This document shows, piece after piece, positions 21,930-59,952 of a stretch of DNA of 64,000 bases. How positions within the stretch are numbered: position 1 is the stretch's first letter; each line of letters starts with the position of its first letter. The DNA comes from a virus, in IMG/VR virus record IMGVR_UViG_3300031525_000865; one strand, 5' to 3'. The notes under the pieces are model-generated. The model did no database searches and was not told where the DNA came from. It saw only the letters and a list, made by a program, of their open reading frames with translations. The translations under genes were made by a program, and so were the position numbers.

Positions 21930-23240
21930 AACCCCGTCCTTCAGGGCGGGGAGGAAGCGCCGTCTCCGCGTTGCGCCTCCACGTAGCGTTTGACGAGCGG
22001 TGCTAAGCTTCGATCCGTGAATATCCGCAAGGGGTTTCGCTACCGCGTGTACCCGAGCGCTTCTCAGATTGCGCGCACCGGACAGTGGGAAGGCGCGCTT
22101 CGGTTTCTCTGGAACCTCGCGCTGGAGCAGAAGCGCATGGGGCTCGCCCGTCCGCGAGGCGAGAAGGTCTACCCGTCGGCGTTCGACCAGATCAAGGAGC
22201 TGACGGAGCTGCGCGCGGCCTTGCCATGGCTGGCCGACGTCCCTCGCAACGTCTGCGCCCAGCTTCTGGTCGAACTCGACAAGTCGTGGCAGCGCTGCTT
22301 CAAGAAGCTCGCCCGTGTGCCACGCTGGAAGCGCAAAGGCCGCGACTCGCTCTCCTTCAGCGAGCCGCACCCCAAGGCGTGGCGCCTCGACGGCTCCACG
22401 CTGCGCTTTCCCAAGCTGGGCAACCTGCGAACGGTCGTGCACAGGCCACTCGAAGGCAAGCCGAAGAGCTGCACGCTCCGCCAGGAAGCCGGCCAGTGGT
22501 TTGCGTCGATCGTATGCGATGTCGAGATGGCCGACCCCGTGCCTCGTGCCGGACCCGTCGTCGCGATCGACCGCGGCGTGGTCAACGTCGTCGGCGACTC
22601 GGACGGTCGTCTGGTCCCGTCGCCACGTTTCTACAAGGAGGCCATGTCGCGCCTCGCCCGTGCTCAACGCAGCGTCTCCCGCAAGAAGAAAGGGTCCAAG
22701 AACCGAGAAAAGGCCAAGGCTCGCGTCGCCGTGCTGCATCGCAAGATCGGCCGAAGGCGCGACCACTTCCTGCATGGTCTCTCGAACGACTACGCCAAGA
22801 GCCACGGCGTCGTCGTCCTGGAGAAGCTCACGATCGGCAACATGGTCCAGGCGAGCCGCGGTCTTGCCCGAGGCATCCTCGATGCGGGGTGGGGCCAGAT
22901 GGCCTGGATGCTCGACTACAAGCTCACGTGGAAAGGCGGCAGGGTCGAGTACGAGTCGGCCGCCTTCTCCTCGCAGACGTGCAGCGAGTGCGGACACGTC
23001 GACGCGAAGAGTCGCGTCTCGCAGTCCGTCTTTCGCTGCACCGCTTGTGGTCACACCGAACATGCCGACACCAATGCACCCAAGGTGCTCAAGAAGCGTT
23101 ACGAATCCCGTGCGAGTCGCTCGGGCAAGCCTGTGGACGGGACCGCGCCTGAGGCGGCCGGAAGAAGCAGGAAACGAGTTGGTCTACGTGTTCCACGTCG
23201 TCCTCTCGAAAGCTCCGGCCTTTAGGCCGGGGTTGATTAC
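21930..23240 (+). mobile_element. IS200/IS605-family non-autonomous (tnpB-only, IS1341-like) element; ends approximate
   Basis: matching subterminal hairpins CCCCGTCC-TTCA-GGGCGGGG (21932-21951) and CTCCGGCC-TTTA-GGCCGGGG (23213-23232) flank tnpB; no tnpA in the window. Confidence 0.8.
22017..23225 (+). CDS. tnpB: RNA-guided endonuclease TnpB
   Basis: FRYRVYP HTH, VAIDRG (RuvC-I D), VLEKL (E), CSECG..CTACG Zn ribbon, HADTNA (D); GTG 7 nt after TGcTAAGCT. Confidence 0.93.
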   Translation: MNIRKGFRYRVYPSASQIARTGQWEGALRFLWNLALEQKRMGLARPRGEKVYPSAFDQIKELTELRAALPWLADVPRNVCAQLLVELDKSWQRCFKKLARVPRWKRKGRDSLSFSEPHPKAWRLDGSTLRFPKLGNLRTVVHRPLEGKPKSCTLRQEAGQWFASIVCDVEMADPVPRAGPVVAIDRGVVNVVGDSDGRLVPSPRFYKEAMSRLARAQRSVSRKKKGSKNREKAKARVAVLHRKIGRRRDHFLHGLSNDYAKSHGVVVLEKLTIGNMVQASRGLARGILDAGWGQMAWMLDYKLTWKGGRVEYESAAFSSQTCSECGHVDAKSRVSQSVFRCTACGHTEHADTNAPKVLKKRYESRASRSGKPVDGTAPEAAGRSRKRVGLRVPRRPLESSGL

Positions 23241-31098: not shown

Positions 31099-31161
31099 CG
31101 AATCTCTTTCGCGAAAGGCGGCCGAACCATGGGGGCCGCGAGAGGAGCCGGTCGCCGGTCG

Positions 31162-32076
31162 ATGGCAACGAAGCAGAAGTCCAGCAAGTCGAGCGTCGTG
31201 GCCCTGGGGGCCAACGGCAAGGGAGACAGGTTTCACTTCGACCCGGAGAAGCTCACGATCGTCAAGGACGAAGAGTCCCCGATCTTCGACGACCGCGGGC
31301 TGACTCCGGCCCAGGAGCGCCTGGTCAAGAGCATCATGCACTTCGGGGTGATCAAGCCGATCATCATCCACAAGAACCCGGAGACGGGCGACATCGAGGT
31401 GGTCGACGGGCGCAAGCGCACGCTGGCGTGTCGGGAGGCCAACCGGCGTCTCGTGGCGGCCGGACAGGAGCCGAAGGAGATCGACGCGATCGTGAGGCGC
31501 GGCGACGACGACACGCTCATGGGCGTGATGATCGCCGCGAACATCTACGAGCCCGAGACGTTCATGAACCGCGCGAAGAAGATGCAGGCCTACCTGGGTC
31601 GCGGGATGACCGAGGAGCAGACGAGCGTCACCTTCGGTTGCTCGGTTGCGGTCGTGAAGAGCACGGTCGCCGTCCTGGACGCGACGGCAGCGGTGAGGCA
31701 GGCGGCGGAGCGCGAGCAGATCAGCCTGACCGAGGCGGGTCGTCTGGCGAAGATGGAGCCCGAGGAGCAGCGCAAGAAGCTGGCGAAGCTCCTGGTGGAG
31801 GCGCCGCGCGCGAAGGGCAAGACGCGTCGCCAGGACAGCGCGAGGGCGAGGGAGATCCTGGGTGGGGGCGAGCCCGTCGCCCGCAAGAAGTCGGAGCTGA
31901 CCGAAAAGCTCAAGGAGATGGAAGCGACGGGTGCGCGGGGCGATCGCGCCGTCCTGGCGCTTCGCTGGGCTCTGGGGCAGGTGGCCACGCTCGATCCCGC
32001 GACCGAGGCGGACGTGGGTCCGGAGGGCGAGGCAGCGTCCTCCACGCCCGCTCTGCGGGTGGCTGGCACGGGATGA
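31162..32076 (+). CDS. ParB-like protein
   Basis: LVKSIMHFGVIKPIII...VVDGRKRTLAC; downstream HTH and ISLTEA region. Confidence 0.8.
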   Translation: MATKQKSSKSSVVALGANGKGDRFHFDPEKLTIVKDEESPIFDDRGLTPAQERLVKSIMHFGVIKPIIIHKNPETGDIEVVDGRKRTLACREANRRLVAAGQEPKEIDAIVRRGDDDTLMGVMIAANIYEPETFMNRAKKMQAYLGRGMTEEQTSVTFGCSVAVVKSTVAVLDATAAVRQAAEREQISLTEAGRLAKMEPEEQRKKLAKLLVEAPRAKGKTRRQDSARAREILGGGEPVARKKSELTEKLKEMEATGARGDRAVLALRWALGQVATLDPATEADVGPEGEAASSTPALRVAGTG

Positions 32077-45280: not shown

Positions 45281-45361
45281 GCGTGCGCGCCGCAAGACTG
45301 CGCCGTCGTCCGTCATGTTATTGGCCACATCGTTCGTGTTCGCGTAGTCTCGCGCTGCACG

Positions 45362-45550
45362 ATGCTTCCCGGCGGAACGTACCGAGAGGAGTACCTGTCG
45401 GAGGCTCTCAGCTACGGATGGCGTTGTCGCAACCAGGCGTGCGGCGTATGGAACGGGGACGACAAGGAGTTTCGGATCACGTGCCGATGCTGCGAGGCTC
45501 CTCGACCACGCAAGGAGAGCGTCGTACGCGGCACGAAGGGCAAGCGTTAG
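45362..45550 (+). CDS. small Zn-finger protein
   Basis: WRCRNQACG...CRCC. Confidence 0.5.
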   Translation: MLPGGTYREEYLSEALSYGWRCRNQACGVWNGDDKEFRITCRCCEAPRPRKESVVRGTKGKR

Positions 45551-45580: not shown

Positions 45581-46247
45581 ATGAGTGTGATCGTCGAGAT
45601 CCGGGCGGCCGAAGGTGGCCTCGATGCAAAAGACCTCGTTCGCGAGCAGTTCACGGTGTACGCGCGCCGCGCTGCTCGTCACGGTCTTTGACCTCGAACT
45701 CATCGAGGACCGTCCGGGGCTGATGGTCTTTCGCGCGCTGGGGGATGCTGCGGCGCACGATTTCCATGACGAGGCGGGAGGGCATCGTTGGCAGCGCGTC
45801 CCTCCGACGGAGAAGCGCGGCCGGGTACAGACCAGCACGGTGACGGTGGCGGTGCTGGAAGAGCCCACACCGCTGCAGGTGCGCCTGGACGATCGGGATC
45901 TGGAATGGCAGACGTGTCGGGCGTCGGGCAGCGGCGGTCAGAAGGTCAACAAAACCGAGAGCGCGGTGCAGCTGCGGCACGTGCCCACGGGGCTGACGGT
46001 CCGGGTTGAGACGGAGCGTTCGCAGCACCAGAACCGTGCGACGGCGCGCACGCTTCTGGGGGCGAGGATCTGGGAGCGCGAGCGTCAGCGGATCCAGAAC
46101 GAGCGGGACGCGAGCCGCCGTGAGCAGGTGGGGGCTGGGCAGCGCGGCGACAAGCGGCGGACGATCGCTGTGCAGCGCGGTACGGTGGTCGACCACGTGA
46201 CGGGTCGAGCCTGGTCACTACGTGACTACCTGCGTGGGGCCTGGTAG
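45581..46247 (+). CDS. short class-I peptide chain release factor (RF1-type PxT, GGQ; lacks domain 1), encoded across a +1 frameshift: join(45581..45688,45690..46247), 221 aa
   Basis: Frame 0 gives MSVIVEIRAAEGG..YARRAARHGL, stopping at CTT-TGA-C (45686-45692). The +1 frame continues DLELIE..GGHRWQRVPPTEKRGRVQTS..GSGGQKVNKTESAV..ERSQHQN. Confidence 0.85.
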
Positions 46248-49978: not shown

Positions 49979-50179
49979 GTGAGCCGCAAGCGTGTGGAGG
50001 AGACGCGAAAGAGTGCGCGACGTCCTCTATGCCCGTCCTGCCGCGTGGGCGGTTACACACAGAGCGAGGCACTGGATGGCCGGCCGCGTTTTCACTGCGG
50101 CCAGTGCGGCAGCACGTGGACGTGTGGTCGTGATGGTGGCGAGTACGCGGGCCGCGCGCAGCCGGGCGTTGGCGGATGA
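49979..50179 (+). CDS. Zn-ribbon protein
   Basis: CPSC...FHCGQC. Confidence 0.55.
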   Translation: MSRKRVEETRKSARRPLCPSCRVGGYTQSEALDGRPRFHCGQCGSTWTCGRDGGEYAGRAQPGVGG

Positions 50180-50496
50180 CGACCTCGGACGAGTGGATGG
50201 GAGCGCACGGTTGGCGCGTGCTGGTGCAGCCCAACGGGCTCCTCGCCATTTTCAGCATGGTGACCGACGAGATGCTTCTCGTGAACGCGACGGACGAGGA
50301 AGTCGCAGCGTGTGTCGTGACCGCCGAGCGCGAGCGCGCGGAGCGTGGTGCGACAGGTCTCGCGCGGCAGATGGTCGCGGAGGCGCGCGAGGACAGCCGG
50401 GCGCCGTGGGCCACGCGATGGGAGCGGACGCTCGCGATGCTGGGCGGCTGGCGAGGGATGGCGTACGTGGACCACCTGACGAAGCGGTGCGCGTGA
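50176..50496 (+). CDS. hypothetical protein
   Basis: ATGA overlap. Confidence 0.55.
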   Translation: MTTSDEWMGAHGWRVLVQPNGLLAIFSMVTDEMLLVNATDEEVAACVVTAERERAERGATGLARQMVAEAREDSRAPWATRWERTLAMLGGWRGMAYVDHLTKRCA

Positions 50497-51106: not shown

Positions 51107-53740
<2,634 letters not shown>

Positions 53741-53931
53741 GGGACTTCGCCGAGGGTCATCGCCGAGAATTCGCTGCACTTTCTCGTCACCGATCTCGGC
53801 TACACGCAGGTCGCTCCCGACACGCAGACGGCGCACCGTGAAGACGCTCCGGCCGCGCTCTAGGACTGCGCGGTCGGCGTCTGGAAAAAGCTCTTGCCTG
53901 AATCGGTAGCGAGTAGTAAACACTACTCACA

Positions 53932-54273
53932 TTGAAGGCCTTCGGGAAGCGGCTACGGACGTTGCGGCTGGAGAGGCATCCCGACCTCTCGATGAGGCAG
54001 TTGGCGCGGAAGGCCGGCATCGAGCCGGGGTACCTGAGCAAGATTGAGCGCGGGGTCGAGCGCGCGTCGGAGGACACGATCGTGCTGCTGGCGGATGCGC
54101 TGGGCGAGAGCCGCGACGTTCTTCTGGCGATGGATGGGCGCATGTCGAAGCGGCTCCTGGCCATCGTGATCAAGCGTCCGGATCTTCTCGCATCCTGGAT
54201 TGAAGCGGTTGAGAAGATGCCCGACGACGCGGTCCTGCGTGTCGTGCGCGAGGTACGGGACGGCAAGTGGTGA
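53932..54273 (+). CDS. XRE-family HTH regulator
   Basis: FGKRLRTLR...SMRQLARKAGIEPGYLSKIERG. Confidence 0.88.
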   Translation: MKAFGKRLRTLRLERHPDLSMRQLARKAGIEPGYLSKIERGVERASEDTIVLLADALGESRDVLLAMDGRMSKRLLAIVIKRPDLLASWIEAVEKMPDDAVLRVVREVRDGKW

Positions 54274-54286
54274 AAGGAAGGCGATC

Positions 54287-55384
54287 ATGCTGGAGCTAAG
54301 TGGAGATGTCCTGGTGTTCAACTTCCCCCACGTGCACCCAAGGGCGAGCGTGCGGGTTGGCTTTCAACGCACGCTGCGGATCCCGGACGACGACAAGACG
54401 TACCCGTTGCCGCCCGGCCTGGGAAACTTCCCCGTCCGGCACATCGAGGACTTCAAGAAGCGCTTGCCCGAGCGGTGGCTGAAGCGCGGCGGGGTCATGG
54501 TGCCCATGTACCAGAGCGAGGCCCTGTGGCTCCAGTTTCAGGGAACGTACGACTCCGAGCGGGAGCACCACTACCCGTTCGCGATCAAGGTCGCGACAGG
54601 GAAGATGAGCGCGCTGACGGGCAAGCCGTGGTCGAAGAAGCTGAAGGGCAAGGACTACTGCGTGGTGCCCGAGCAGCCGTGGCTCGACGGCTACGTCGTC
54701 GAAGACGGCCTTGTCAGGCAGTTCGTGGCGATGCCGCTGGGCGGCGGGTTCACGGTCGAGGAGCAGCTGACGGGCAAGGCGGAGTTCGGGGGGATTCAGA
54801 TCGAGGTCATCCCGATGAAGCGCTCGGAGTACGAGAAGCGCTTCCCCAAGGTCGAGCGCAGACCCAGGCTTCGCATGCTGCGAAGCATGAGCCTGGGATC
54901 GGCGGGAGGAGGTGGCTACGGGACGATGTCATACAGCGCCACGGCGTCCGCCTCCGCAGGCGACGCCATGATGAACATGTGCGAGATGGACAGCATGGGT
55001 CTGGGGGCGGGCGGCCGGATGAAGCAGCAGGTGTTCGACGATCCGTACGGCCTCGATCGGTGGGACACGGGGCACAAGAGCCGGTGCTTCGTCCACCTGG
55101 CGAACTCCATGATGTGGCGCCGGATCACGGGCGACGAGCCCCCGACAGTCCCATTCACAGCGGCGGAGTACAGGCGCAACGGGATGCCTTGGTTCGACTT
55201 CTACGCCGACGCGCCGGCCCTGGAAGGCACGTCCAAGCTGAAGGGCGTGAAGACGGTCAAGCAGGTGGGCAAGCAGAAGGGTGTCAGCGCCCTTCCGGAG
55301 AACACGTCCCTCTCGATCGACCCGAAGCACATTCACGCGATCATGTCGCATGGCAAGCAGGTGAAAGACGGCGTCTGGAAGTAG
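54287..55384 (+). CDS. conserved protein of unknown function (FQRTLRIPDD...LPPGLG.FP family)
   Basis: FQRTLRIPDD, PMYQSEALW, QPWLDG and QFVAMPLG motifs; I recall them in bacteria and fungi; GGAAGG SD. Confidence 0.8.
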   Translation: MLELSGDVLVFNFPHVHPRASVRVGFQRTLRIPDDDKTYPLPPGLGNFPVRHIEDFKKRLPERWLKRGGVMVPMYQSEALWLQFQGTYDSEREHHYPFAIKVATGKMSALTGKPWSKKLKGKDYCVVPEQPWLDGYVVEDGLVRQFVAMPLGGGFTVEEQLTGKAEFGGIQIEVIPMKRSEYEKRFPKVERRPRLRMLRSMSLGSAGGGGYGTMSYSATASASAGDAMMNMCEMDSMGLGAGGRMKQQVFDDPYGLDRWDTGHKSRCFVHLANSMMWRRITGDEPPTVPFTAAEYRRNGMPWFDFYADAPALEGTSKLKGVKTVKQVGKQKGVSALPENTSLSIDPKHIHAIMSHGKQVKDGVWK

Positions 55385-55397
55385 TAGGATCACGCGC

Positions 55398-56132
55398 ATG
55401 GACGACGACACACCCGAGCAAGTGAGGCGCCGCCTCGTCAACACGGCCGCAGCGGAGAGGTGCGACCGCTGTCGATTTTGGACGAACGAAGGCGCCAAGG
55501 AGACGGGCGTCTACCGGATCCATCCCGAGCAGCACTCGTTTCACAGGCGCACGGTGCAGTACGGACAGTGCGTGCGCCACGACGCGGGAACGTTCCCCGA
55601 TCTCAATGCAGCGCGAGACCACGCCCGAGAGTCCGTGATGCTGCGAGGTCGCGTGGAGACGCGCAACGACTTCGCGTGCAGCGCGTTCGAGGCGGCCCGC
55701 AGCGAGCCGTCGACGTGCCGCGTGTGCAAGCGCGTGACCGCGAAGAAAGTACGCAACTGTCCGTGCTCTTGTTACGTGTGCCGCCGAGGCGACGCGTGCG
55801 GCGTGTTCTTCTGGGCATGCTCGCACTGCGGCAGCGGCGTGGACGAGGACAAGCGCTGGCCGTGGTCGCTTCGGCTCGCAGATCCGGAGACGTTGCACTG
55901 CGCGGAGCTTCGTGCGCGCGCGAAGCTGCCCGAGAAGATGCAGCTCGTCTGCCCACGGTGCGACGTGATGATGCAGCGGCGGGAGGAGCCCACGGGCAGC
56001 TGGATGATGTCAGGCCCGACGGGGCATGGCGCTCCGCCGCCTGCGGCGCCCATGAAGCTCGCGCCACCGACGGGTGCTGGCACATCGCTCTGTCCCGTCT
56101 GCGGCTGGATGAACGTCGGCGTGACCGGATGA
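55398..56132 (+). CDS. multi-Zn-finger hypothetical protein
   Basis: several CxxC pairs. Confidence 0.6.
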   Translation: MDDDTPEQVRRRLVNTAAAERCDRCRFWTNEGAKETGVYRIHPEQHSFHRRTVQYGQCVRHDAGTFPDLNAARDHARESVMLRGRVETRNDFACSAFEAARSEPSTCRVCKRVTAKKVRNCPCSCYVCRRGDACGVFFWACSHCGSGVDEDKRWPWSLRLADPETLHCAELRARAKLPEKMQLVCPRCDVMMQRREEPTGSWMMSGPTGHGAPPPAAPMKLAPPTGAGTSLCPVCGWMNVGVTG

Positions 56133-56366
56133 CCGGCCACAAGAAGCAGGACACGATCGACGCGGCGCTGGCACTGCTCGACGAAGAGAAGAGCAAGCTG
56201 CGGCGCATCTTCCGCCAGCCGACGCGCTCGTCCTCCATTCACTGGCTCCTTCCGATGCTGCAGTCGGGATGACCCGCCGTTGGCACGAGGAGCTGTCGAA
56301 CATCCAGCACGAGGCGCAAGGTCGTCGGCTCGCCAGCAGCGACACTCTCTGGTACAAAATGCGCCC

Positions 56367-57710
56367 ATGGAAAGCGACAGCTTCGACATCATCGAGAGCC
56401 AGGGAGGTGTGCCCATCAAGGCCTGGACGCGAGGCGTTCCGGTGGAGGATGGCGCGAAGGCGCAGCTCCGCTACACCTCGCAGCTTCCCATCGTGTGGCC
56501 GCACATCGCCGTCATGCCCGACGTACACCACGGCTTCGGCTCGACGGTGGGCAGTGTCATCCCGACCGTAGGAGCGATCATTCCCGCCGCGGTCGGGGTC
56601 GATATTGGCTGCGGCATGGTGGCAGCGCGCACGACGTTGACGAGCCATCAACTGGGCGACAGCGCAAAGGCGCTCTTCGATTCGATCTCGCATGCGGTGC
56701 CGCACGGCCGTTCGGACGAAGGTGGCAACAACGACCGTGGCGCGTGGGGCCAGCCGCCGGAGGTGGTGACGGCAGCGTGGGCGGGGCTGGAGGAGCGGTT
56801 CAAGCGGATTGTGGACAAGTACCCGCGCCTGGAGACGCGCCGGCAGGTCAAGCAGCTGGGGACGCTGGGTACGGGCAACCACTTCATCGAGGTGTGCATC
56901 GACACCGAGGACCGCATCTGGGTGATGCTGCACTCGGGCAGTCGTGGCATCGGCAACCGCATCGGGAGCTACTTCATCGCGATCGCGAAGGACGAGATGG
57001 ATCGCCTTGGGATCTCCATGCCCAACCGGGACCTCGCGTACCTGTCGGAGGGGACCGAGCATCTGCCAGACTACATGGAGGCGGTGGGCTGGGCGCAGGA
57101 CTACGCGCGCACGAATCGCGAGCTGATGCTGGAGCGCACGCTGTCGGCGCTGCGCAAGGCGGGGCTGCCGAAGTTCGAGGTGACCGGGCAGGTGGTCAAC
57201 TGCCACCACAACTACGTGCAGAAGGAGGAGCACTTCGGCCGCGAGGTCTACCTGACGCGCAAGGGTGCGGTGAGTGCTCGTGTCGGAGAGATGGGCATCA
57301 TCCCCGGTAGCATGGGAGCCCGGAGCTTCATCGTGCGTGGCAAGGGCAACGCGGAGTCCTTCCACACGTGCAGCCACGGGGCTGGCCGGGTGATGAGCCG
57401 TACGGCGGCGCGGCAGACGATCACGCTGGCGCAGCACCGCGAGGACACGGCGCACGTCGTGTGCTGCAAGGACAAGGACGTCGTTGACGAGAGCCCTCGG
57501 GCCTACAAGTCCATCGAGGCGGTGATGGCGGCGCAGTCGGATCTCGTGGAGATCGTCCACGAGCTTCGGCAGATTGTCTGCGTCAAGGGTCTTGGTGACG
57601 GCGACGGGCACAAGGGCAAGAAGGAGCGGAGGAGGAACGACAGGCGTCAGGAGGCGAGTCTCTACGGGCACGGCGAGCCGGACGACGACGAGAGCGGTCC
57701 CGACGCGTGA
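56367..57710 (+). CDS. rtcB: RNA ligase RtcB
   Basis: MPDVH, VGVDIGCG, LGTLGTGNHFIE, HSGSRG, CHHNY, PGSMG, SHGAGR, DESP.AYK. Confidence 0.96.
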   Translation: MESDSFDIIESQGGVPIKAWTRGVPVEDGAKAQLRYTSQLPIVWPHIAVMPDVHHGFGSTVGSVIPTVGAIIPAAVGVDIGCGMVAARTTLTSHQLGDSAKALFDSISHAVPHGRSDEGGNNDRGAWGQPPEVVTAAWAGLEERFKRIVDKYPRLETRRQVKQLGTLGTGNHFIEVCIDTEDRIWVMLHSGSRGIGNRIGSYFIAIAKDEMDRLGISMPNRDLAYLSEGTEHLPDYMEAVGWAQDYARTNRELMLERTLSALRKAGLPKFEVTGQVVNCHHNYVQKEEHFGREVYLTRKGAVSARVGEMGIIPGSMGARSFIVRGKGNAESFHTCSHGAGRVMSRTAARQTITLAQHREDTAHVVCCKDKDVVDESPRAYKSIEAVMAAQSDLVEIVHELRQIVCVKGLGDGDGHKGKKERRRNDRRQEASLYGHGEPDDDESGPDA

Positions 57711-57727
57711 GCGCGGGACCATGAAGG

Positions 57728-58654
57728 TCAGCGGTAGCCAGAGCTGGTCTTGCGGGTGGTGTCGACGGCGGGGACATCGTCCACGTCGGCTTCCATCTCG
57801 ATCTCCATGTGACGCATACTGTCGCTCGTGTTGCGCATGACGAAGTCGAAGTCTTGTGCGACGACGCATGCATCGAAAACGATAGCGAGGCCGTTCTCGA
57901 ACGCTTCGACCGCGATGGGCATCTCGGAGATGAGCTGGTCTCGGTTGCCGATCTTCACGGCGAGAAGGTCGAGATCTCCGCGGCTGTCGGAGTGGATCCA
58001 CAGACGCCTGGTCCGCATGTGCCACGGTGAGCGCCAGATGATGTGCTCCTCCGGCGTGGGCGGCACGCCAAACCGACGCGTCTTCGAGCACGGCCTCGGA
58101 TCGGGCGCGAGTGGGTACGGCCGTGAGTCGTCATTGGAGTGACCTTCGTACGCGAGCTTGACGAGAACGGGCTTCTTGGAAGTGTTCTCCACGACGCAGT
58201 ACATGACCTCGGCGACCTGAAGAGTGCGGATGTTCTTGCCGGCGAGAGGGACGCCGCCGCGACCTTCCTGGCCTGGAGTGAAGCCAATGCCTCCCATTCG
58301 GTGGGTGGCGTTGTCCTTCTCGTCGAAGGTGACGACGTGTCCGCCCAGATGGATCTCGCGCAAGCAGACGGGATGCTCCAAGCCTGCGCCGCGGTCCGTG
58401 ACCGCCGTGCTGCCCTGGAGCCTCTCGCCGTTTTTGGAGAACGCGAGGATCGTCAGCGCGTCGGGCGTCCAGCAAGAGATGAGGGGCCGCATCGCGAACA
58501 TCAGCTTCTCGCCCGGAGGCGCGATGGCCGGCTTGTCCGAGTAGACAGTGTCCTCCAGAAAGAACTTTTTCTTCTTGCCCGTAGTCTCGGGCGCGGACGG
58601 TGATGTGTTTCCCTGGTAGCCTGTCTGTACGCGAGTTACGCCGGTCCGCACCAT
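57728..58654 (-). CDS. beta-rich protein with two internally repeated domains (jelly-roll candidate)
   Basis: TLQVAEVMYCVVENTS versus ACVVAQDFDFVMRNTS; alternating beta-strand patterns in both halves. Confidence 0.6.
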   Translation of the reverse strand: MVRTGVTRVQTGYQGNTSPSAPETTGKKKKFFLEDTVYSDKPAIAPPGEKLMFAMRPLISCWTPDALTILAFSKNGERLQGSTAVTDRGAGLEHPVCLREIHLGGHVVTFDEKDNATHRMGGIGFTPGQEGRGGVPLAGKNIRTLQVAEVMYCVVENTSKKPVLVKLAYEGHSNDDSRPYPLAPDPRPCSKTRRFGVPPTPEEHIIWRSPWHMRTRRLWIHSDSRGDLDLLAVKIGNRDQLISEMPIAVEAFENGLAIVFDACVVAQDFDFVMRNTSDSMRHMEIEMEADVDDVPAVDTTRKTSSGYR

Positions 58655-58749
58655 GCAGCCATGGTGCATCCGTCATCGATCCAAGTCCAAGCCAAATCGC
58701 GACGTCGTCGAGGTCGTGGCTGTGGTCCAGGTAGGGTCGCGCGCGCATC

Positions 58750-58778
58750 TTGCGTGAGCGGCGGCCAGGTCTTAGCCT
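58750..58778 (+). promoter_or_regulatory. TTGCGT-17-TAGCCT promoter of dnaJ
   Basis: canonical spacing; GGAGG follows. Confidence 0.55.
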
Positions 58779-58788
58779 GGAGGCTCGG

Positions 58789-59952
58789 ATGGGCAAACGA
58801 GACTACTACGACGTCCTGGGGATCACGCAGGACGCGTCCTCGGACGACATCCGTCAGGCCTTCCGTCGCGAGGCGGCCAAGAGTCATCCGGACCGAAACC
58901 AAGGGGACGAGAAGGCCGAGGCTCGGTTCAAGGAGATCAACGAGGCCTTCCAGGTGCTCTCCGACGACGGCAAGCGCCGGATCTACGATCGGTTCGGGCA
59001 TGCGGGGCTCGATCCGGGGGGAGCGGGCGCGAGCGATGGGGACGGCTTCCACGGGGTCCAGGACGTGTTCGCGCACATGCAGGAGCTGTTCGCGGACATG
59101 TTCGGGGCGACGGTACCACCGGAGGAGCAGCGACGCCGGCACCGCCACAACGGCGCACCACCGCGGCAGGCCAAGAGCGGACAGGACATCCGGGTCGAGA
59201 TCCCGATCACGATCCGCGAGGCCGTGTACGGGTGCACGCATACGGTGACGGTGCGGTCGACGGCGGTGTGCTTGGAATGCGGCGGGACGGGCGCCCGACG
59301 CGGCACGAAGCCCGAGGTCTGCTCGGGGTGCGGAGGGGGCGGCCAGGTGTCGGTGCCGCGTGGGTTCATTGCGTTCTCGCAGCCCTGCGGGATGTGTCAC
59401 GGCGTGGGGCAGCTCATCCACCATCCGTGTGGCGCATGCCGTGGCCAGGGGGCGTCGGAGACGACCCGCCAGGTCCCGGTCAACTTCCCTCCGGGGATCG
59501 CCGAAGGTCAGCGTCTGCGCGTACGTGGCTACGGGATGCCCGGGCGCGACGGAGCGCCGTCCGGTGATCTGCAGGTGGAGATCGTCCTCAAGCCCGACGA
59601 GAGATTCGAGCGGCACGGTGCCGATCTCCAGACGCATGTGCACGTGCTGTTCACCCAGGCGATCCTGGGTGCCGAGCTGAGGGTACCGGTGCCCGACGCC
59701 ACGCGCGACGACGTGACGGTGCCGATGTTCTTGCCGCCGGGCACGCAGAACGGGGCGGCCCTCCGCGTGGCGGGCCATGGACTTGGGCGCACCGGGGCGC
59801 GAGGTGTGCTCATCGTCGTCATCCATGTCGATGTGCCCGTGAAGCTGTCGGAGCGGGCGCTGGCTCTGGTCGCGGAGTTGAACGCCGAGCTGGTTTCTCC
59901 GCAGAAGAAGCCGCAGCTCTCGCCGGGAGCCGAGCCGCCGCCGCCCGGGTGA
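58789..59952 (+). CDS. dnaJ: chaperone DnaJ (class A)
   Basis: J-domain with HPD, G/F region, four CxxCxGxG repeats, C-terminal domain. Confidence 0.95.
   Translation: MGKRDYYDVLGITQDASSDDIRQAFRREAAKSHPDRNQGDEKAEARFKEINEAFQVLSDDGKRRIYDRFGHAGLDPGGAGASDGDGFHGVQDVFAHMQELFADMFGATVPPEEQRRRHRHNGAPPRQAKSGQDIRVEIPITIREAVYGCTHTVTVRSTAVCLECGGTGARRGTKPEVCSGCGGGGQVSVPRGFIAFSQPCGMCHGVGQLIHHPCGACRGQGASETTRQVPVNFPPGIAEGQRLRVRGYGMPGRDGAPSGDLQVEIVLKPDERFERHGADLQTHVHVLFTQAILGAELRVPVPDATRDDVTVPMFLPPGTQNGAALRVAGHGLGRTGARGVLIVVIHVDVPVKLSERALALVAELNAELVSPQKKPQLSPGAEPPPPG

Follow-up and report, generated by a model that had tools for sequence, protein, structure and literature searches.

How a release factor gene whose reading frame closes after 36 codons might still yield a complete product, and what its interruption might sense, are the questions raised by a locus in the IMG/VR record IMGVR_UViG_3300031525_000865. 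The gene occupies positions 45581-46247 on the forward strand of the window, by which we mean the entire stretch of 64,000 nucleotides that was analyzed. As the preliminary description of the locus had recognized, the automatic ORF track opens the protein in the wrong frame, at a GTG at position 45615 (product P0002), while the true start is the ATG at 45581 and the frame beginning there ends at the sequence CTT TGA C (45686-45692). This frame-0 segment (45581-45688, + strand) comprises 36 codons that specify the N-terminus of the factor (MSVIVEIRAAEGG...RRAARHGL), namely the beginning of release factor domain 2 with helix alpha-5 and its AAEGG tip, and it is conserved in all homologs in the family alignments. 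It closes in the context CAC GGT CTT TGA C, where the CTT (45686-45688), which is its last codon, corresponds to the P-site leucine, the TGA (45689-45691) is an in-frame stop, and a C (45692) follows. The +1 frame is open from 45591 to a TAG terminator at 46245-46247, and the part of it lying beyond the site (45690-46247, + strand) extends from GAC, the codon for Asp37, to residue 221, providing the remainder of domain 2/4 and domain 3.

The joined product is a short RF1-type factor

When CTT-T is read as one step the two segments join into a product of 221 residues (P0001). This product matches the NCBIfam RF1 profile over positions 105-318 of 347 in a single stretch (198 bits), and Pfam recovers in it the C-terminal part of the PCRF domain and the RF-1 domain. 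Residues 88-309 of Thermotoga maritima RF1 (1rq0) align with it without a gap at the junction, and the same structure is its best match in the PDB (151 bits), followed by E. coli RF1 (135 bits), and then by RF2 (96 bits) and PrfH (58 bits). Thus, the profile, domain and structure-based alignments all cross the junction unbroken, and the +1 shift regains the register of domain 2 exactly as had been proposed. Homologs with a continuous frame display the sequence ...RRGL-DVELVE... at this place, which is an exact fit to the L36|D37 junction. In an AlphaFold2 model of the joined protein (mean pLDDT 82, about 90 for residues 1-70), L36|D37 is situated between a helix (residues 13-33) and a strand (residues 37-44) of one compact domain and is well packed, and Foldseek searches with this model return RF1 and RF2 chains first.

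A PPT tripeptide (45801-45809, + strand), inside the segment QRVPPTEKRGRVQTS, takes the position of the PxT 'anticodon' motif of RF1, and the catalytic GGQ (45933-45941, + strand) is invariant in the family. As the profile match begins at position 105 of RF1, domain 1 is absent and the site lies in domain 2; these points, together with the RF1-like PPT and the intact GGQ, stand as first described. Judged by its sequence, the product is a class-I release factor of the RF1 type that lacks domain 1 and the last helix. A Cys-rich ORF (CxxC...CxxC, about 66 residues; 45352-45550, + strand) ends 30 nt before the ATG at 45581 and is conserved only within the same element (L003, L004).

Error, decay and division of the gene

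An interrupted frame, and nothing more, favors the view that the locus reflects faulty sequencing or assembly, or a pseudogene of recent origin. Assembly error is excluded because 12 contigs, drawn from ENA, JGI and Logan samples, encode exactly the P0002 sequence, and because two further contigs span the site unchanged: one from an independent DNA run (X4, 45648-45849) and one from a metatranscriptome (X24, 45619-45819), each with no differences and no gaps over the site. The indel that the preliminary description had considered as an explanation is therefore contradicted by independent DNA assemblies and by an RNA-library contig, all of which are identical at the site. The stretch itself is present in 24 listed runs, nearly all of which are peat metagenomes. 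The RNA-library contig also speaks weakly against an edited or slipped transcript, given that contigs drop rare variants and that DNA may contaminate RNA libraries. With respect to decay, 186 distinct homologs retain the site, and Nei-Gojobori dN/dS values over 104 close pairs come to 0.13 in each of the two segments, frame-0 and +1, indicating that purifying selection acts on both. Error or recent inactivation thus has a negligible probability.

Alternatively, the gene might be genuinely split, with a 36-residue peptide and a separately initiated C-terminal protein being produced by termination and re-initiation without any frameshift. Gene callers indeed begin the +1 ORF at GTG 45615, and in some relatives with an in-frame stop (see below) an ATG directly follows that stop (TGA ATG). 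Against this, the +1 frame has no conserved start codon at or after the site, where it reads TTT GAC CTC GAA..., the TTG contained in CTTTGA is in the wrong frame, and upstream of the site the +1 frame shows no conservation. Furthermore, a division at this point would separate a helix from a strand of one compact domain and would leave the presence of an exact prfB cassette without explanation. We hence regard a split gene as very improbable.

Two other routes past the stop were considered and set aside. Recoding of TGA as a sense codon does not restore the homology, since the frame must change. A suppressor tRNA was likewise rejected, the call of a tRNA-SeC(tca) by ARAGORN being doubtful and 56-61% of the genes in the window ending in TGA. 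The call in question, a 77-nt tRNA-SeC with anticodon TCA at 50215-50291 (+ strand), lies inside an ORF (50176-50496) and is probably false; Rfam detected no tRNA anywhere in the window.

A conserved prfB-like cassette across the family

Protein searches with the factor recovered two length classes of relatives, one of about 222 residues covering the whole query and the other of about 192-210 residues covering 84% of it. The products of the shorter class begin with ...TVF-D or ...GGVF-D, as results from translating GTC TTT GAC in the +1 frame. A homolog with about 52% identity in the 485-kb INPHARED huge phage LR745208.1 has CGG AGG GGT CTT TGA CCT at the same place. To survey the site we fetched the loci of 80 of the 357 relatives in IMG/VR, 80 of at least 488 in metagenomes and 80 of 153 in species genomes. 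In the IMG/VR and metagenome sets (164 loci) the +1 shift is needed in 129, 16 are continuous, 11 have an in-frame stop at the same codon, and in eight the N-terminus is missing; in the species-genome set the shift is needed in 75 of 76 loci.

Pooling of these sets yielded 186 distinct 37-nt contexts from IMG/VR contigs, metagenomes and Myxococcota genomes. CTT directly precedes the stop in every one of them (186/186), at protein identities to the window copy reaching down to about 47%, and since CTT accounts for only 14.5% of the leucine codons elsewhere in the same genes, its recurrence in front of a stop at one and the same codon excludes chance. The stop itself, which we term the gate, is TGA in 129 contexts (69%), TAG in 52 (28%) and TAA in five (3%), and the base after it is C in 159 (85%), G in 24, A in two and T in one, the commonest heptamers being CTTTGAC (103) and CTTTAGC (51). 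A Shine-Dalgarno (SD) sequence of the form GGAGG is found exactly 3 nt before the CTT in 114 of the 186 contexts (61%), and at least four of its five bases are found in 143 (77%), giving the family consensus C-GGAGG-NGT-CTT-T[GA][AG]-C. The conservation of CTT and of the C after the stop, combined with a low dN/dS in each segment, bears out the suspicion that CTT-TGA-C is a maintained signal.

In two respects the family differs from what the window copy alone had suggested. The region in which the internal SD of the family lies (consensus C-GGAGG-NGT, 3 nt before the CTT) corresponds to 45674-45685 (+ strand) in the window, where the sequence is CGT CAC GGT, and an SD-like run is absent from the 15 nt preceding the CTT of this copy. 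The statement that there is no internal SD is accordingly correct for the window copy and a few lineages, but not for the family, in which GGAGG at a 3-nt spacing characterizes 61% of the sites; the window copy is an SD-less variant of a prfB-type cassette. In the same way, the description of the gate as UGA holds for the window copy but does not extend to the 28% of the family with UAG and the 3% with UAA.

Fourteen continuous genes have CTC, CTA, CTG, CCG, TTT or TAC at this codon, and CTT in only two cases. One continuous gene (L084) is the cassette minus one T (CGG AGG TGT CTT GAC), and another (L278; P0006), whose product is 70% identical to the window factor, reads CAC GGT TTG ACC and still resembles the site. 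These two are natural 'repaired' alleles that would be useful controls.

Relatives with an in-frame stop and relatives without the loop

The loci with an in-frame stop at the very codon of the frameshift (L086-L091, L110, L123, L008, L022 and L025) have this site about 110 nt into the gene. In L086-L091, L110 and L008 the sequence is CTC TGA followed by ATG, CTG or CTC, in L025 it is CTA TGA CTG, and in L022 it is TAT TAG ATG; L123 and L090 contain one additional in-frame stop each. None of these readthrough-class relatives has an upstream SD, and they include two clades that are nested among the frameshifted ones. Their dN/dS values of 0.1-0.3 imply that they are not decaying, and an alternative genetic code was rejected for these loci, in which the standard code already gives an ORF coverage of 0.75-0.99 without any sign of reassignment, at the level of a crude test. 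As this codon is still a stop, now in frame, in both clades, it is the stop itself that evolution preserves, and comparison of these contexts suggests that passage past it can be by either +1 slippage or readthrough.

In a further set of copies (L001, L041, L047, L008 and two others) the PPT loop has been lost by a deletion of 2-4 residues, as exemplified by the sequences QRT----SNGRIHSS and QE----KSGGRMQTS, with L041 and L047 standing beside close sisters that keep the loop. Such loop-less copies may no longer be codon-reading.

Carriers and genomic context

The five IMG/VR records with the gene that were checked are all rated 100% complete by CheckV, with lengths of 191-436 kb, and four of them have direct terminal repeats; these four complete phages establish that genuine huge phages are among the carriers. 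The gene also occurs on the chromosomes of the cultured Myxococcota Minicystis rosea DSM 24000, Archangium gephyra SDU49 and Nannocystaceae ST9, on a contig of Pyxidicoccus fallax DSM 14698, and in many MAGs of Polyangia, Kofleriaceae and Sandaracinaceae. In Minicystis and Archangium the 40 kb around the gene consist of ordinary chromosomal genes, and in a sample of 120 other genomes of the phylum of Archangium the short factor was not detected. No conserved neighbors emerged among about 230 loci, the biggest neighbor cluster comprising 11 loci. The gene is hence an accessory, mobile one with a patchy distribution. One of the two 40-kb neighborhoods in Minicystis rosea and Archangium gephyra (L274-L277) has genes for EF-Ts, a member of the amino-acid-kinase family and RRF, and also includes three VgrG-like (Phage_GPD/Gp5_C) genes.

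The window itself is part of an ORFan-rich, virus-like 166-kb contig from peat with a GC content of 66%. Structural phage hallmark genes were not detected among the 52 proteins of the 64-kb window, a megablast search of the window against INPHARED phages gave no match, one window ORFan had no match in the five complete huge phages, and Terminase_6N was not found in those five phages. The window contains a proteostasis/RNA-repair cluster (51107-59952) with genes for ClpB (51107-53740), RtcB (56280-57710; 406 bits) and DnaJ (58750-59952), and Pfam further identifies a SNF2 helicase (2-2095), a TnpB/IS605 OrfB (21990-23225) and a ParB (31129-32076), as well as, elsewhere, Pdf, a SpoU methylase, UDG, DHFR and sigma factors.

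What the gate might sense

In the established mechanism of prfB, the peptidyl-tRNA(Leu) slips from CUU to UUU while the stop codon in the A site awaits its release factor. The prfB genes of five myxobacterial carriers have the classical cassette near codon 25 (e.g. CGGAGG TTG CTT TGA C), and as this is the arrangement SD-N3-CTT-TGA-C, their ribosomes must shift on it in order to make an essential gene product. Recoding at the site studied here is supported with high confidence, and we consider it probable that a programmed +1 frameshift ties the synthesis of the factor to weak termination at the gate, which in the window copy is UGA and thus implicates RF2. The ribosome would pause when its P site is occupied by peptidyl-tRNA(Leu) paired to CUU and UGA has entered the A site. 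Reading of the UGA by a release factor would liberate a 36-residue dead-end peptide, while if the UGA were left unread the tRNA would re-pair on UUU, GAC would be read as Asp37 and the full factor would be made. Pairing of the SD with the anti-SD at the 3-nt spacing and the C after the stop would favor the slip, and slow termination at the gate codon would raise the yield, making the output inversely tied to termination efficiency. In the window copy, with no SD, expression should be lower or more dependent on a shortage of RF2, and the efficiency of the site may be low. The recoding signal, its conservation, the purifying selection on both frames and the fold are documented by the analyses above; by analogy with prfB we infer the slip itself and its dependence on release factor concentration, and sensing of termination capacity by the gene is plausible.

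With regard to which factor is sensed, the residues of the product that bear on decoding are informative. The family keeps RF1-like reading elements, namely a Gly and an Asp/Glu at the tip of alpha-5, a Gln before the loop and a Thr after the His/Gln, and its decoding loop has the form PP[T/N/S]E...GR[V/I][Q/H]TS, some relatives having PPN or PPS in place of PPT. Since the UGA gate is read by RF2, whereas the decoding elements of the factor are RF1-like, cross-regulation by host RF2 activity is favored and is the most likely arrangement for the UGA-gated copies. The UAG-gated relatives (28%) can constitute a true RF1-type feedback loop. It is not obvious that an RF1-type factor induced by a shortage of RF2 would relieve that shortage.

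True autoregulation would demand that the short factor have a broadened specificity (UGA in addition to UAA/UAG, or any stop) and limit its own synthesis as RF2 does. The unusual loop, in which PPT, PPN or PPS replaces P[A/V]T and a Gln often takes the place of the stacking His, is compatible with this, as are the use of all three stops as gates and the gene's own terminator, which is TAA in about 55% of copies despite a GC content of 57%. On the other hand, the RF1-type reading residues are retained, and a factor that accepted either purine at the second as well as the third codon position would recognize UGG too. Moreover, well-supported branches require at least eight switches of the gate between TGA and TAG, and parsimony allows up to about 22, with sisters of 90% identity differing in some cases, and no position in the loop or elsewhere changes consistently between TGA- and TAG-gated sisters. 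The suggestion of the preliminary description that an altered specificity might account for the UGA gate is consequently not borne out, as the decoding loop does not covary with TGA versus TAG. Autoregulation of this kind is possible, though unlikely.

Repeated switching of the gate without a change in the loop fits poorly with a strictly factor-specific feedback and leaves room for a general or fixed attenuator. Such a device would set a low and constant proportion of full-length product, or couple its output to host prfB, and any sensing would be without a physiological role. In line with this, the proportions of the gate stops (69%, 28% and 3%) roughly mirror general stop usage in the GC-rich genomes of the carriers (TGA 54-71%, TAG 24-34% and TAA 5-12%, from crude gene calls), and overproduction of release factors is toxic (PMC12421855). 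A promoter or a weak ribosome-binding site would nevertheless have an equal effect, the device belongs specifically to a release factor gene, the readthrough clades still hold a stop at the same codon after losing the frameshift, and the C that makes for weak termination is conserved after 85% of the stops. We consider a fixed attenuator quite unlikely. The lack of loop changes upon gate switching, together with the absence of TAG from the gates of prfB, is what keeps both this reading and that of broadened specificity alive.

Stop usage around the gene adds a related consideration. TAG terminates 24 of the 70 complete genes (34%) in a first gene call of the window and 41% of 66 genes in a stricter one, against 24% in 300 kb of a myxobacterial chromosome (p = 0.03, on crude calls), and TAA terminates 3-4% of the window genes. 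In the flanks on MAG contigs the proportion of TAG terminators is 34% (p = 8e-5, likewise on crude calls), and there is a weak trend between the gate codon and the terminators of neighboring genes (TAG 41% versus 31%, p = 0.03, with crude gene calls). A UAG-rich element would profit from extra RF1-type activity.

Taking these observations together, we tentatively put forward, as a possibility of rather low probability, that the family represents a putative stop-codon-gated back-up release factor. Its synthesis would be confined to failures of canonical termination, such as might follow the depletion or trapping of RF2 or RF1, or an attack on either, in phage-host or inter-bacterial conflict, and the factor would then free stalled ribosomes with relaxed or codon-independent specificity. 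A back-up role of this type would fit the family because the gate has three interchangeable forms (+1 at UGA, +1 at UAG and plain readthrough), because the codon-reading loop is entirely gone from several members and because huge phages and myxobacterial chromosomes exchange the gene.

Significance of the family

A switch so far described only for RF2 occurs in an RF1-type factor, and about 190 of its relatives, from huge phages and myxobacteria, have kept it. This should be of high interest to the fields of recoding and termination. The UGA, UAG, UAA, SD-less, readthrough and 'repaired' variants together form a comparative series on the contribution of each element of the cassette, and the same series asks whether one factor can be wired to the status of another. 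Archangium gephyra, Minicystis rosea and Pyxidicoccus fallax offer a cultivable entry to a gene that is mostly seen in uncultured huge phages. In practical terms, several hundred database entries of the family are mis-called, with a wrong-frame start and about 84% of the true length.

Comparison with known systems

The best sequence match of the factor is RF1 (prfA; NF001859/TIGR00019), with which it shares the QRxPxTE...GRxxTS loop, the GGQ motif and the domain 2/3/4 architecture. It differs from RF1 in that it lacks ~104 N-terminal residues (domain 1) and ~25 C-terminal ones and its loop is PPT rather than P[A/V]T, and its scores lie below the RF1 cut-offs (198 versus 400 bits for NF001859 and 190 versus 423 bits for TIGR00019). 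PrfH (RFH), which is not known to have the codon-reading loop that the window factor keeps, is similarly a short class-I factor without domain 1, and rtcB is present in the window. PrfH acts with RtcB2 in the rescue of ribosomes damaged by colicin E3 (PMC1586002, PMC9304027). A PrfH-like pairing with RtcB is ruled out by the score of the factor against the PrfH profile (TIGR03072; 93 bits, cut-off 166.65) and by the position of rtcB, which adjoins the factor gene in one of about 160 loci and is 10 kb away in the window; a full-text search of the RFH/PrfH paper found no mention of a frameshift in prfH. Likewise, the ArfB profile (NF006718) matches residues 99-133 only (48 bits, cut-off 100), and the presence of domain 2/4 indicates that the product is not ArfB.

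Another virus-borne termination factor gene with internal stop codons is the eRF1-type gene of Mimivirus/Megavirus, which is expressed via a frameshift and readthrough (Jeudy et al. 2012, PMC3521657) and therefore parallels the present family in displaying both recoding modes. However, that gene encodes a factor of the eukaryotic/archaeal type in viruses of amoebae, whereas the family described here is of the bacterial RF1 type and is distributed over phages and bacteria, and the two are unrelated in sequence and site. In our full-text literature searches, frameshifting was not described for any RF1-type release factor or any bacterial-type release factor of phages. The passages searched in the GeneTack survey name prfB alone among release factor genes, and a preprint on stop-codon recoding in phages mentions phage RF1 and RF2 and, in the passages searched, describes no frameshift in them.

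The closest parallel to the cassette itself is that of prfB, the RF2 frameshift being the textbook case of autoregulatory recoding. The two have in common the heptamer CUU UGA C, the +1 direction, the C after the stop, the location in a class-I release factor gene and, in the family consensus, a GGAGG-type internal SD at the same 3-nt spacing. The factor is nonetheless not an RF2: it scores 138 bits against the RF2 profile TIGR00020 (cut-off 370), has PPT instead of SPF, and the true prfB genes of the carriers are separate. The site of the family is at codon 36/37 in domain 2 of an RF1-type factor without domain 1, whereas that of prfB is near codon 25 in domain 1; in addition, the window copy lacks the SD, and sister clades have an in-frame stop instead of the frameshift. 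A 2025 survey in mBio of more than 12,000 genomes reported autoregulatory frameshifting for prfB and not for prfA, for which there was no convincing case (PMC12421855). The stop of the prfB motif was UGA in 98.6% and TAG in none of 8,164 motif-bearing genomes (PMC12421855), whereas UAG gates 28% of the present family, implying that the selective logic differs. In a tree with host RF1 and RF2 the short family forms one clade (SH-aLRT 99), whose path length to RF1 is about 0.57 and to RF2 about 0.98, with the continuous genes in a basal position of weak support. As the family is devoid of domain 1, its site cannot be homologous to that of prfB. The independent evolution proposed at the outset is in agreement with a separate clade that is nearer to RF1 than to RF2 and with the basal continuous members, which favor an independent gain. 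Thus, the cassette was probably acquired separately, by convergence or by copying of the motif, and would represent a second, independent origin of the switch.
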